This document shows positions 5,489-42,528 of a stretch of DNA of 64,000 nt, piece by piece. The stretch covers positions 5,163 through 69,162 of the forward strand of contig CAWJWO010000010.1 in NCBI GenBank assembly GCA_963846585.1. The letters are read 5' to 3'. Made by a program: the position numbers and the translations under genes. The notes below the pieces were generated by a model, which was not told where the DNA came from, made no database searches, and saw nothing but the letters and a program-made list of their open reading frames with translations. This DNA is from an uncultured Bacteroidota bacterium. GTDB taxonomy: Bacteria > Bacteroidota > Bacteroidia > Bacteroidales > JAAUTT01. Position 1 is the stretch's first letter. The number at the start of each line of letters is the position of its first letter.

Positions 5489-6781
5489 TTAACATTGAAA
5501 ATTGAGCATTATGGTTGCCATTTTTTGTGCATTGCTAATTGCTAAAATTTGTGCAGTTGTAATTACCGACAACACTTGCTCAAACGAAGCTAAATAATTT
5601 TCTGTAGTATCGAGGTTAGTATGACCTAAACTTTCTGAAATAAACGCAATATTTGCCCCGCTGCGCTTTAATACAGTGGCGAAACTATGGCGGGCTGTGT
5701 AAGTTGAGATTTTAGGAAGGTTTAAATTTTTCGCTATTAATTGCATTTTGTCATTTACCAAATGAGTAACATTTTTAATAATGCGTTGCTCGTCAACTAA
5801 GGTAATACCCTCAGTTAAAAAAGGGAATATGTAATTATTTGGGGCTTTGGTTCTATTGCCCCATTTTGTTATTATTTGCTCCATTTGAGGTAATAAAGGG
5901 GCTGAAATTTTCTTTTTATTCTTTGTTTTGCGGATGGTTTTTTGACGGTAAAATGAAATTTCGCCGTTTGATATATCGGAATATTTTAATTTTAAAAGGT
6001 CCACCATATTGATACCATTGCACAAATAGGAGAAAAACCATAAATCACGGCAACGGTCTTCATTCTCTGTTTTAACTTCGTAATGCATTAATTGACCAAT
6101 TTGAGAAAGTGTTAAAGCTAAATTACGACCTTCACCAGTAGGAATTTCATATTTGCCTTTACCAAATGGGTATTGAGCTGCTGTAATATATCCTAGTTCT
6201 TTGCCAATATTTATGATTGACTGCAAAGCTCTCATGTACATTGAAATGGTGGTGTAGCTTTTAGCTTTCTTCTTTTTTTCTTTATCTTCTAATAGCAACC
6301 AGCTTTCAAACTTTTTAAGCCAATCTATTGTAATATCAGAAAATCTAAGTTGATTATTGGTATATAATTTAATACTGTTTGAAGAATACTTATACCAAAT
6401 GGAAGTACCTAATTGCCCTGAATTAATTAATTCCTGAATTTTGTTTTCATAGAATGTGAAAATATTATTATCGGTTCCTTTACCCATTCTTTTATTAAGG
6501 GTATCAAAACTAAAGCCACCAATTTTTAATATGGAATCGATTTGTTCTTCAACCTTGTTTTTGAATGATAAAAGTTGCTCAAATGTTTTTATTGTTGACT
6601 TTTTCTTTGATTTCTCTATATTTGCAAAATCTTCAACTGATAGGTTAATACCAGTTGAATAATAAATACGAGCTCTTTGAAAGGTAACTTTATACTTAAC
6701 TGGATACACATTATCCTTTTTCTCTCTGCGGATATCTAGGTACAATGTACCTGTAACACCAGAATTGGAGTATATTTTCAT
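5489..6781 (-). CDS. Tyrosine site-specific recombinase (phage-integrase family) with its 3' end replaced by IS21 sequence
   Basis: C-terminal catalytic signature TYTARHSFATVLKRSG...LGHTNLDTTENYL (HxxR, H, catalytic Y). The last ~28-30 codons (about 5575-5582 down to 5489) are read out of the IS21 right terminus. Confidence 0.85.
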   Translation of the reverse strand: MKIYSNSGVTGTLYLDIRREKKDNVYPVKYKVTFQRARIYYSTGINLSVEDFANIEKSKKKSTIKTFEQLLSFKNKVEEQIDSILKIGGFSFDTLNKRMGKGTDNNIFTFYENKIQELINSGQLGTSIWYKYSSNSIKLYTNNQLRFSDITIDWLKKFESWLLLEDKEKKKKAKSYTTISMYMRALQSIINIGKELGYITAAQYPFGKGKYEIPTGEGRNLALTLSQIGQLMHYEVKTENEDRCRDLWFFSYLCNGINMVDLLKLKYSDISNGEISFYRQKTIRKTKNKKKISAPLLPQMEQIITKWGNRTKAPNNYIFPFLTEGITLVDEQRIIKNVTHLVNDKMQLIAKNLNLPKISTYTARHSFATVLKRSGANIAFISESLGHTNLDTTENYLASFEQVLSVITTAQILAISNAQKMATIMLNFQC

Positions 6782-6942
6782 AAGGTGTGCAAGTTTTTAT
6801 TGGATACACGATTTGCACACAAATATAGTAAATATAAGGAAATATACGAAAGAAAAGTAAAGTTATTTTGTAGTAAAAGTGCTGTTATTCACGTATTTAG
6901 AAACAAATGCAAAAGAATGAAAATAGAGAAAAATGGGGTTTT

Positions 6943-6988
6943 TATGCATGGCATGCAAGAGGTCGCGAGTTCGATTCTCGCATTCTCC
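6943..6988 (+). other. Orphan 3' fragment of a class II tRNA (variable arm, T-arm, acceptor 3' strand): likely att-site relic
   Basis: Variable-arm-like hairpin TGCATGGCATGCA, T-arm GCGAG-TTCGATT-CTCGC, acceptor strand ATTCTCC plus discriminator A. No complementary GGAGAAT 5' strand, D-arm or anticodon arm lies upstream. It sits about 160 bp from the integrase start codon. Confidence 0.5.
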
Positions 6989-7286
6989 ACTCTTTACTTT
7001 AATTGGCTTCCTGAGGTTTGGAGGCCATTATTTTTTATAATACTTATAAATACTAAGGTTTAAAATTAAAAATAAGGTTTAAATAATACATTAAGTTATA
7101 GATAAACTTTTAAAAGGTTGTATTATACTTCTGTCTTAACGTTGTAACACTTAAAATAAATATATTATGATCAAAATGCAGTTATAGCCCCTTTTTAAGG
7201 CATAGCCGTCAGGTTAATGTCTATATAGAGCAGAATGATAGATATTTAGTGTAAATGTAATAAAATATTAGTGTAATTAAGAGCGT

Positions 7287-7775
7287 ATGTCAACGACTGG
7301 ATTTGTATATATTATGACCAATAAGAACAAAACAAATTTATATATTGGGGTTACAAACAATTTATGCAGAAGAATACATGAGCATAAAAATCATTTGATA
7401 AATGACACTTTTACAGATAAGTACAATATTGAATACTGTATTTATTACGAAGAATTTCAATATTTTGAATTGGCAATACAAAGAGAAAAAGAATTAAAAA
7501 AGTGGAACCGTCAAAAGTTTATTTCGAGCGACGCGAGAAAACTCAAGATAAACAAAAAGAACCCCGAATGGAAAGTGCTGGTAACAGAGCGTGGCTTTGT
7601 TCGGAATAATAAATCATTTTCTCAACATGTTTCGGACATAGTCAATGAATTACAACCAATTAAAGAGATTCCTCCCTGCGGTCGGAATGACGACCAGCAG
7701 AATTGTGGCGTTGCGGGAGGTGAAGAGAGTGCGGCTTTGCCGCACTCTCTTCACCTCCCGCTCTCTGACCAATAA
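7287..7775 (+). CDS. GIY-YIG nuclease family protein (C-terminal ~50 aa encoded by palindromic repeat DNA)
   Basis: Motifs GFVYIMTN...LYIGVTNNLCRRIHEHKN...YYEEF...AIQREKELKKWNR...NPEWK match the small GIY-YIG proteins common in Bacteroidetes. The reading frame then runs into the nested palindrome at 7665-7807. Confidence 0.8.
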   Translation: MSTTGFVYIMTNKNKTNLYIGVTNNLCRRIHEHKNHLINDTFTDKYNIEYCIYYEEFQYFELAIQREKELKKWNRQKFISSDARKLKINKKNPEWKVLVTERGFVRNNKSFSQHVSDIVNELQPIKEIPPCGRNDDQQNCGVAGGEESAALPHSLHLPLSDQ

Positions 7776-7807
7776 CGACAGTCATTTCGAGCGAAGCGAG
7801 AAATCTC
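7665..7807. repeat. Nested palindromic module inside cassette copy A
   Basis: The imperfect outer arms are GAGATTCCTCCCTGCGGTCGGAATGAC (7665-7691) and GTCATTTCGAGCGAAGCGAGAAATCTC (7781-7807). They enclose a perfect 23-bp stem, GCGGGAGGTGAAGAGAGTGCGGC-TTT-GCCGCACTCTCTTCACCTCCCGC (7713-7761). Confidence 0.8.
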
Positions 7808-8005
7808 AAATAAAGTATTATAATTGTATATAAGCATTTTACAAGCGTTAACCTGACGGCTATGCTTTTTAAGGGGTTGGGGTTAAGCACATTACAATAT
7901 AAAATCAAATTACTAAAATTAAACTCCCATCACAATACTAATGGGTATCTCTAAAAACTCTCAAATTTGAAGCCCAACAAAGAAGTTGAAGTTTTAAGAG
8001 GTACC

Positions 8006-41676: not shown

Positions 41677-41815
41677 TTTTGTAGTTAATTAACCTTAGTT
41701 TGATTTAAATAATCAGATTTTTATACTGTAATTTATTTAACCCCAACCCCTTAAAAAGCATAGCCGTCAGGTTAACGCTTGTAAAATGCTTATATACAAT
41801 TATAATACTTTATTT

Positions 41816-41958
41816 GAGATTTCTCGCTTCGCTCGAAATGACTGTCGTTATTGGTCAGAGAGCGGGAGGTGAAGAGAGTGCGGGTTTGCCGCACTCTCTT
41901 CACCTCCCGCAACGCCAGAATTCTGCTGGTCGTCATTCCGACCGCAGGGAGGAATCTC
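41816..41958. repeat. Nested palindromic module inside cassette copy B
   Basis: Same architecture as 7665-7807. The central hairpin at 41862-41910 has a 22-bp stem and loop GTTTG. Confidence 0.8.
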
Positions 41959-42336
41959 TTTAATTGGTTGTAATTCATTGACTATGTCCGAAACATGTTG
42001 AGAAAATGATTTATTATTCCGAACAAAGCCACGCTCTGTTGCCAGCACTTTCCATTCGGGGTTCTTTTTGTTTATATTGAGTTTTCTCGCGTCGCTCGAA
42101 ATAAACTTTTGACGGTTCCACTTTTTTAATTCTTTTTCTCTTTGTATTGCCAAATCAAAATATTGAAATTCTTCGTGATAAATACAGTATTCAATATTGT
42201 ACTTATCTGTAAAAGTGTCATTTATCAAATGATTTTTATGCTCATGTATTCTTCTGCATAAATTGTTTGTAACCCCAATATATAAAGTTGTTTTGTTCTT
42301 ATTGGTCATAATATATACAAATCCAGTCGTTGACAT
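41848..42336 (-). CDS. GIY-YIG nuclease family protein, second copy
   Basis: 162 aa, differing from the 7287-7775 product at seven positions (N17T, Y54H, E61D, K87N, V98A, C139S, L150N). Confidence 0.8.
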   Translation of the reverse strand: MSTTGFVYIMTNKNKTTLYIGVTNNLCRRIHEHKNHLINDTFTDKYNIEYCIYHEEFQYFDLAIQREKELKKWNRQKFISSDARKLNINKKNPEWKVLATERGFVRNNKSFSQHVSDIVNELQPIKEIPPCGRNDDQQNSGVAGGEESAANPHSLHLPLSDQ

Positions 42337-42528
42337 ACGCTCTTAATTACACTAATATTTTATTACATTTACACTAAATATCTATCATTCTGCTCTATAT
42401 AGACATTAACCTGACGGCTATGCCTTAAAAAGGGGCTATAACTTTTATCCAATCAAAGTATTAGTTTACCTGGTAGCATTAGTCGGAATCAATTAATAAA
42501 AAATTTGACTTTTTAAATCGAACTTATG

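Follow-up and report, generated by a model that had tools for sequence, protein, structure and literature searches.

A 64,000-nucleotide stretch of DNA (the window; C10:5163-69162) from an uncultured Bacteroidota bacterium, the assembly of which comprises 4.07 Mb in 20 contigs at 34.5% G+C, contains two copies of a 664-bp unit that encodes a small protein with a GIY-YIG nuclease domain. Positions are those of the window unless preceded by a contig. In the first copy (copy A), the unit is bounded by a perfect 17-bp terminal inverted repeat, CATAGCCGTCAGGTTAA and its exact reverse complement, and the 10-mer CTTTTTAAGG abuts the inverted repeats on both sides (Table 1). Deleting the core together with one 10-mer leaves AGTTATAGCCCCTTTTTAAGGGGTTGGGGTTAA. 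The second copy (copy B) is 98.5% identical, lies in the opposite orientation and has the same arrangement with CCTTAAAAAG as its duplicated 10-mer; the likeness includes 11-12 bp outside the 10-mers. The inverted repeats, the 10-mers, the empty-site sequence and the arrangement of copy B had all been described in an initial annotation of the window, and each was borne out, coordinates included.

The GIY-YIG domain (Pfam PF01541, E 1.1e-15) is the only domain of the encoded protein, and the 3' third of its open reading frame (ORF) reads through repeat DNA. As argued below, it is likely, at a probability of about 0.8, that the unit is a mobile insertion cassette (MIC), a non-autonomous derivative of the IS231 subgroup of the IS4 family of insertion sequences (IS), most likely moved in trans by a transposase encoded elsewhere, with the GIY-YIG gene as its cargo. 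The nuclease would then probably be the cargo and not the engine.

Copies of the element and their target

The initial annotation had proposed that all copies be collected and their ends aligned. With BLAST and an end-motif search of the whole genome, 14 copies were located that are full or nearly full and have both inverted repeats (646-664 bp, and one copy of 401 bp with an internal deletion). A further copy is truncated at a contig end, and decayed copies lie at C1:174440-175165 (85% identity), C2:52057 and C18:88450. Core identity among the 14 copies is 97-100%; in the flanks, similarity drops to 75-92% and extends for only 40-110 bp. This break indicates that the unit ends at its inverted repeats and is young and uniform inside older repeats. 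The copies at C7:263640 and C7:403580 are 100% identical over 664 bp with unrelated right flanks. The structure, inverted repeats plus duplication, is far beyond what chance would produce. The exact element was absent from the 40 related genomes searched, and at the one orthologous junction tested, the acyl-CoA dehydrogenase and IDI-2 genes that are spaced by ~1 kb containing the cassette in this genome (copy C2:282355) are separated by 15-105 bp without the element in six congeners. To the left of this copy, at C2:282137-282200, short tandem heptamers (TAGTGCA / TTAGTGC type) follow directly on the acyl-CoA dehydrogenase stop codon; 30-nt stretches identical to this region occur at many other loci.

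The flanks of the cassette were found to be part of a dispersed hairpin repeat, AGTTATAG-CCCC-TTTTTAA-GGGG-TTGGGGTTAA. A search for empty sites, also proposed in the initial annotation, returned CCCCTTNNNAAGGGG 16 times without the cassette, mostly within the AGTTATAG...GGGGTTGGGGTTAA repeat, and solo hairpin repeats number more than 25 overall. The A arm of copy A is common to these solo repeats and absent from six cassette copies. At four loci (C1:226824-226887, C2:49686-49770, C15:391240-391327 and C19:24514-24607) the two flanks of copy A form one contiguous alignment, with an overlap of 9-10 bp that is the duplicated 10-mer.

An exact or nearly exact 10-bp direct duplication abuts CAT...ATG in seven of the 14 copies. 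Both window copies, C15:383799, C17:232054 and C18:170077 have one orientation relative to the target, and C7:429808 and C7:263640 (the latter with a 9/10 match) have the other. The loop of the duplication tracks the target and not the core, with the variant CCTTCTTAAG on both sides of C18:170077 and CCTTAAAAAG on both sides of C7:429808. The 10-bp repeat is a genuine target-site duplication, produced in either of two registers one base apart. Given these seven duplications with their target variants, the empty sites and the identity break at the inverted repeats, the first of two readings offered in the initial annotation, in which a transposon-like unit duplicates 10 bp of a target that is palindromic and itself repeated, held. 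The other, in which the unit measures 707 bp, with inverted repeats of ~30 bp and a duplication of 5 bp, is ruled out: the 5-mer TTTAT (41732-41736 and 42444-42448) flanks copy B only, copy A having AAATGC on the left and GCACA on the right, and six copies lack the AGTTATAG arm. The TTTAT around copy B is a chance detail. The end of the cassette is fixed at CATAG by the direct duplications with target-specific variants and by the published CAT tip of such elements. Longer inverted repeats that include the hairpin, considered by analogy with the GGGGTGTCGCC flanks of an IS on contig C15 described below, were also ruled out for the cassette.

The hairpin repeat belongs to an IS4-type MITE (miniature inverted-repeat transposable element), of which it is the subterminal part. 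The full host MITE appears to have two hairpins in inverted orientation with their B arms outward. In congener G003, 8 nt separate the B arm from the end (…TTAAGTCAACGACATTG) that terminates another IS4-type MITE. In a further IS4-family element of this genome, C1:244101-245800 with ends CAATGTCGTTTATTTAAG, the stretch from the transposase gene to the right end contains two hairpin repeats as an inverted pair; CAATGTCGTTTATTTAAG also terminates a hairpin-bearing MITE in G003.

Table 1. Positions of copy A and its parts, of copy B and of the nested MITE family
Feature	Position	Strand	Remark
A arm of older target hairpin repeat, AGTTATAGCCC	7180-7190	+	outside the mobile unit
Left 10-bp target-site duplication, CTTTTTAAGG	7191-7200	+	follows target orientation in seven copies
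Left terminal inverted repeat, CATAGCCGTCAGGTTAA, IS231-type	7201-7217	+	tip CAT
Mobile unit, copy A: probable 664-bp mobile insertion cassette	7201-7864	+	no transposase gene; 14 copies 97-100% identical vs flanks 75-92%
Cargo ORF, 162 aa	7287-7775	+	GIY-YIG domain, residues 5-76 (7299-7514)
In-frame insertion/replacement of short hairpin-motif repeat within ORF	7518-7547	+	KWNRQKKxDLINKK to KWNRQKFISSDARKLKINKK
Hairpin motif GTCATTCCGACCGCAGGGAGGAATCTC, repeat travelling with cargo gene	7665-7691	-	motif class at 42/80 homologue loci vs 0/119 controls
Perfect hairpin, 23-bp stem	7713-7761	.	loop TTT vs AAA between copies otherwise ~99% identical
Second hairpin motif, GTCATTTCGAGCGAAGCGAGAAATCTC	7781-7807	+	
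Right terminal inverted repeat (TTAACCTGACGGCTATG on + strand)	7848-7864	-	
Right 10-bp target-site duplication, CTTTTTAAGG	7865-7874	+	
B arm of target hairpin repeat, GGTTGGGGTTAA	7875-7886	+	
Copy B	41749-42432	-	core 41759-42422; 10-bp duplications 41749-41758 and 42423-42432
~193-bp foldback MITE family, ends TAATGCGAATTAAGRGT	C2:337299-337488, C7:212065-212257, C15:66129-66321, at least 7 more		interior rich in CCACAAAGG / CCTTTGTGG

Ends of the IS231 subgroup and a candidate donor element

Members of the IS231 subgroup of the IS4 family have ends of the form CAT-------AA--TAA--- and direct repeats of 10-12 bp (PMC2266710, Table 1); they show insertion specificity, range from 1450 to 5400 bp owing to passenger DNA, and have given rise to MIC231 derivatives (PMC2266710). 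A MIC consists of two IS inverted repeats that enclose at least one coding sequence but no transposase, spans ~700 bp to 3 kb, and undergoes trans-transposition in strains with a functional IS231 (PMC6199540). The cassette end CATAGCCGTCAGGTTAA agrees with the IS231 consensus at seven of the eight specified positions (CAT at 1-3, AG at 11-12 with G for A at 12, and TAA at 15-17), and its 10-bp duplication lies within the published range. Two IS-type inverted repeats are present without a transposase, and the GIY-YIG gene is the only ORF in the unit with a family match.

When one genome per species was scanned with the end motif CATAGCCGTCARGYTAA, it was found in at least 119 contigs of Bacteroidota, Legionella, Desulfobacterota, Caldithrix, Bacillus, Fibrobacter and others. 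The motif bounds full-length elements of 1482 and 1634 bp encoding proteins of 446-448 aa, for which the NCBIfam IS4-family model NF033592 (cut-off 115 bits) gives 195-199 bits, and transposases at other such loci are 30-38% identical to that encoded on contig C15 of the present genome. It also bounds many ORF-less pairs 112-293 bp apart, which are MITEs. Nine of 16 inverted end pairs from elsewhere have direct repeats of 9-11 bp at CAT...ATG (six exact and three with one mismatch), and two further pairs agree once a 7-nt end duplication is allowed for; hairpins make up several of the targets, e.g., TTCGAAGAT-ACA-ATCTTCGAA and GTTGGCG-TCCT-CGCCAAC. Among the matches listed from these contigs (at least 119), no GIY-YIG gene was found near an IS231-type end. 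Ends of this type were once described as nearly confined to the Bacillus cereus group, but they occur widely in Bacteroidota and further phyla, where they have many MITE derivatives that prefer hairpin loops.

Within the genome, a 3048-bp element at C15:162707-165754 has CATAGCCGTCAAGCTAA at both ends, a 15/17 match to the cassette end that fits all specified positions of the IS231 consensus. It encodes a 431-aa DDE protein (C15:162857-164149; PF01609; 167.7 bits on NF033592) with the YREK motif Y(2)R(3)E(6)K present as YKLRWQVELIFKTWK. The best full-length matches to this protein among 72,556 plasmids are transposases annotated as IS231B/C/F/S (27-31% identity over ~88% of the query, E 1e-41 to 1e-47), and IS421/IS186-type proteins match it over a 230-residue stretch only (E ~1e-7). 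Passenger ORFs for a methyltransferase-like (226 aa) and an OsmC-like (124 aa) protein lie 3' of the transposase gene, and a truncated second copy of the IS lies at C15:197088, with GGGGTGTCGCA at the corresponding flank position. The other six IS4-family loci of the genome have different ends, e.g., CACTATTATCCGACTAAAA and CAATGTCGTTTATTTAAG. The 431-aa protein is the one intact IS231-like transposase of the genome and the only candidate with matching ends, and it may be the one that mobilizes the cassette in trans.

The transposition of the cassette would be the work of an IS231-like DDE transposase, produced elsewhere in the cell, that binds both CATAGCCGTCAGGTTAA ends, excises the element at CAT...ATG and joins it to target positions staggered by 10 bp; repair of the gaps would generate the 10-bp duplication. 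The preferred target is a symmetric CCCC-TTNNNAA-GGGG in the subterminal hairpin of an older MITE family, and the location of this site in such a hairpin explains why the target is itself repeated.

As a separate observation, a search for solo GGGGTGTCGC sites as a target family of the C15 IS returned an unrelated motif of ~40 nt, GGGGTGTCGCCAGCATTTCCGTCAAAAACCACGCTAAG and variants, at the intergenic sites C8:83169, C15:603099 and C18:4241, and also at C2:448217 and C1:10961. This motif has GGGGTGTCGCC and CCGTCAA...GCTAAG in common with the end region of the C15 IS.

The GIY-YIG gene and its hairpin motifs

Homologues of the cargo gene were compared at 80 metagenomic loci, where the proteins are 62-93% identical, with 119 loci serving as controls. 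IS231-type ends were found at only two of the 80. One of these (L150; 79% identical) has both ends, again adjoining a AGTTATAGCCCC hairpin and with a degenerate duplication of ~10 bp, and the other (L149; 93% identical) has one end. In congeners, the gene occurs at 70-82% nucleotide identity with no such ends in the available upstream and coding sequence, both contigs stopping ~100 bp past the gene. A solo IS231-type end was found in congener G004 at the same hairpin position, with CAT directly following CCCCTTAAAAAGG, and its interior is unrelated.

A hairpin motif, GTCATTCC...GGAATCTC, searched for as GTCATTYC-N8-20-GRAATMTC, a looser relative of the published SRM pattern given below, accompanies the gene far more regularly: it was found at 42 of the 80 homologue loci, with 77 motifs in 185 kb and frequently on either side of the gene, as opposed to none of the 119 controls (721 kb). 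The 3' third of the cassette is taken up by two of these motifs together with a perfect 23-bp-stem hairpin. The rarity of the ends and the frequency of the motif at homologues argue that the cargo is a captured gene-plus-motif module, and the sequences suggest that the capture was made by a narrow lineage of IS231-type ends. This pre-existing module would pair a single-domain GIY-YIG gene like those of the Ssn nucleases with hairpin motifs of its own, GTCATTCC...GGAATC. The 3' module of the cassette, i.e., the GTCATTCC motif, the long GC-rich hairpin and the second motif, also occurs without the GIY-YIG gene at ~10 other loci, with 74-83% identity (C7:154044-154266, C18:501081-501299, C2:51868-52127, C17:228293-228486 and others).

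Proteins of the Ssn family (cd10448) are single-domain GIY-YIG proteins of ~90-150 aa, the genes of which are flanked by SRM repeats (PMC11893778). The present cargo is likewise a single-domain protein, of ~100 aa without its insertion, and its homologues are strongly tied to the GTCATTCC...GGAATC motif, often on both sides, as Ssn nucleases are accompanied by NTS/SRM repeats (Chenal et al. 2025, PMC11893778). Unlike the Ssn systems, the gene-motif module is enclosed by IS231-type ends, and the published SRM pattern, HGTCWYN(0-2)YYVSBRHN(0-5)WNVSBRGN(0-2)RNCYNB, has no match in the window and is at chance level in the genome (three matches, compared to two to seven in shuffled genomes). A search of PDB sequences with the cargo protein gave no match. 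Affiliation with the GIY-YIG homing endonucleases, in which the domain is coupled to a DNA-binding domain and insertion produces no target duplication, is not indicated: the protein has a single domain and scores 24 bits on TIGR01453 against a cut-off of 56, and target duplications are present.

Across all 14 copies and the decayed copy, the domain frame is uninterrupted by stop codons; the frames are of 145-164 aa, and of 89 aa in the 401-bp copy with the internal deletion. An in-frame repeat insertion (KWNRQKFISSDARKLKINKK) is present in 11 copies, the decayed copy and L149. It is absent from the three 646-bp copies (C1:64883, C7:37909 and C18:592053), which keep the ancestral C-terminal sequence KWNRQKKRDLINKK, and from the congeners and L150. 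With 11 copies and the decayed copy carrying it, the insertion-altered form of the ORF is the one that proliferated.

Competing explanations and known relatives

Several observations weigh against a simple IS231-type cassette with a passive passenger. The 'CA region' of the Bacillus MIC231 is not evident in the cassette. The C15 IS, its candidate donor, departs from it at two of the 17 end positions and itself lacks a direct duplication, being flanked by the inverted sequences GGGGTAGTACC and GGCGACACCCC. Over its first 110 codons the decayed copy is 95.5% identical to copy A, compared to 75-86% for the non-coding parts, with six synonymous and seven non-synonymous codon changes; this hints that the cargo gene may have been retained by selection, perhaps including one for a role in spread. 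Finally, the GGGGTTGGGGTTAA arm stands on either side of six or seven copies (type Y), the loops reading TTAAAAA on the left and TTTTTAA on the right. The hairpin loops of these copies are inverted and not directly repeated, each flank being a 'B half' of the hairpin repeat.

The host of the type-Y copies is a nested MITE with ends TAATGCGAATTAAGRGT, of which the genome contains at least 10 other members of ~193 bp. A variant of this MITE forms the outer shell of three type-Y copies (C2:282258-283108, C7:403489-404341 and one around C7:37909), and the first two composites measure 851-853 bp. Both types of single junction exist: the B'-hairpin-A' type is filled at C7:263640 and C7:429808, and the A-hairpin-B type in five copies. 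Joining a left junction of the former to a right junction of the latter reproduces the type-Y flanks, and the sum of hairpin and duplication stays at 25-26 bp. Type-Y flanks may thus be the left and right junctions of two insertions into a two-hairpin host MITE that were joined by deletion or recombination, with loop inversion as an alternative contributor. The loop of the hairpin at 7713-7761 also flips between copies that are otherwise ~99% identical (GGC-TTT-GCC vs GGC-AAA-GCC and variants), which points to frequent flipping of hairpin loops in this genome.

Of the alternatives, the one that survives best, though improbable, is that the transposase moves the cassette and the nuclease assists, for example by nicking single-stranded hairpins to favour insertion at, or copying into, hairpin repeats. 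The better preservation of the ORF relative to the non-coding parts of the decayed copy would fit such assistance, as would an unusually high copy number (14, compared to one donor IS) and the type-Y flanks and frequent loop inversions as signs of active hairpin-related DNA processing. Against this, ORF-less MITEs with the same ends enter palindromic targets and generate 9-11-bp duplications, so that hairpin targeting needs no nuclease, and the motif that belongs to the gene, GTCATTCC...GGAATC, is unlike the target hairpin. A two-enzyme element, in which a DDE transposase acts in trans and the resident GIY-YIG protein nicks extruded hairpins of the host MITE or promotes copying between hairpin repeats, is held to be just as improbable; if true, it would account for the 14:1 excess of the cassette over the donor IS and for the copies with inverted flanks. 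Under the preferred interpretation as a trans-mobilized cassette, the nuclease would have no part in the movement.

It is rather less likely still that the transposase is one other than that of C15, for example one from an IS231-like element that was lost or lies in unassembled DNA, or that the family is no longer active. The left end of the cassette does match the IS of locus L096, in a Tannerella metagenome-assembled genome, over 25 nt, better than it matches the C15 IS, and the assembly is in 20 contigs and holds a truncated second IS copy. However, the C15 element is the sole resident with matching ends, and the two cores that are 100% identical argue for recent movement.

The mobility driven by the GIY-YIG protein that the initial annotation implied found no support. 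That the Ssn-like nuclease itself cuts the CCCCTTNNNAAGGGG hairpin and inserts its own gene, as a new kind of GIY-YIG transposase, is considered very improbable, even though it is the sole gene in the unit, its domain frame is free of stop codons in every copy, and the target is a hairpin: single-stranded DNA is cut at hairpin repeats by the Ssn nucleases, whose discoverers remarked upon an IS-like layout of repeat, gene and repeat (PMC11893778). The ends and the length of the duplication are nonetheless those of IS231-subgroup IS4 elements, which have DDE transposases; such ends were found with transposases or with no gene in at least 119 contigs, with no GIY-YIG gene among the matches listed, and 78 of the 80 homologous genes lack them. 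Moreover, the ORF altered by a repeat insertion is the form that reached 11 copies, and to our knowledge no strand-transfer activity has been described for any GIY-YIG enzyme. Least probable of all is spread among hairpin repeats by homing or gene conversion, in which a double-strand break and recombinational copying would take the place of transposition. Homing endonucleases are found among GIY-YIG enzymes, the dispersed target would provide flanking homology and gene conversion could also make cores more uniform than flanks, yet homing makes no target duplications, seven copies have 10-bp duplications with target-specific variants, and identity breaks exactly at canonical IS ends with no co-conversion tracts.

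The closest known system is MIC231 of IS231 in the Bacillus cereus group (Chen et al. 1999; De Palmenaer et al. 2004, cited in PMC2266710, PMC6199540). Both have two IS231-type inverted repeats, no transposase gene, one passenger gene, a length of ~0.7 kb and a 10-bp duplication; both have a cognate IS231 or IS231-like IS in the same genome and prefer a symmetric target flanked by G/C. For the latter trait, Hallet et al. 1994 reportedly found a preference of IS231A for GGG(N)5CCC. Unlike MIC231, the present cassette resides in an uncultured Bacteroidota bacterium, its target is CCCC-N7-GGGG in the hairpin of another MITE, a GIY-YIG nuclease, accompanied by its own hairpin motifs, forms the cargo, and its movement in trans is one that we infer. 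Nesting in repeats is also known from IS1397 and ISKpn1, which insert in the loops of enterobacterial REP/PU palindromes. The cassette likewise aims at the loop of a dispersed palindromic repeat; those elements are autonomous members of the IS3 family with 3-4-bp duplications, whereas the cassette is a non-autonomous IS4-family derivative with 10-bp duplications.

As an IS231-type MIC, the element would be of a known kind, set apart by its Ssn-like cargo, its targeting of hairpin loops inside another MITE and the phylum of its host. A literature search for GIY-YIG genes with inverted repeats and target duplications in Bacteroidetes returned nothing relevant. What seemed to be the first such evidence for a GIY-YIG transposon carries instead the signature of a DDE (IS4/IS231) element, with the nuclease as a probable passenger. 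It offers a concrete case of an Ssn-like nuclease gene packaged with its hairpin motifs for movement within a genome, and so bears on the dispersal of nuclease-repeat modules.

With regard to RNA genes, ARAGORN found no tRNA genes, and Rfam returned nothing on the element beyond below-threshold chance matches of miRNA models to the hairpin. Outside the element, the 3' end of tmRNA is partially matched at window positions 6935-6992 (RF00023, E 6e-6, under the gathering score). The match lies just upstream of a gene, at 5489-6781, for a 430-aa tyrosine integrase with Phage_integrase, SAM-like and Arm-binding domains. Together they resemble an integrated island's attachment-site end, with copy A ~200 bp past it.

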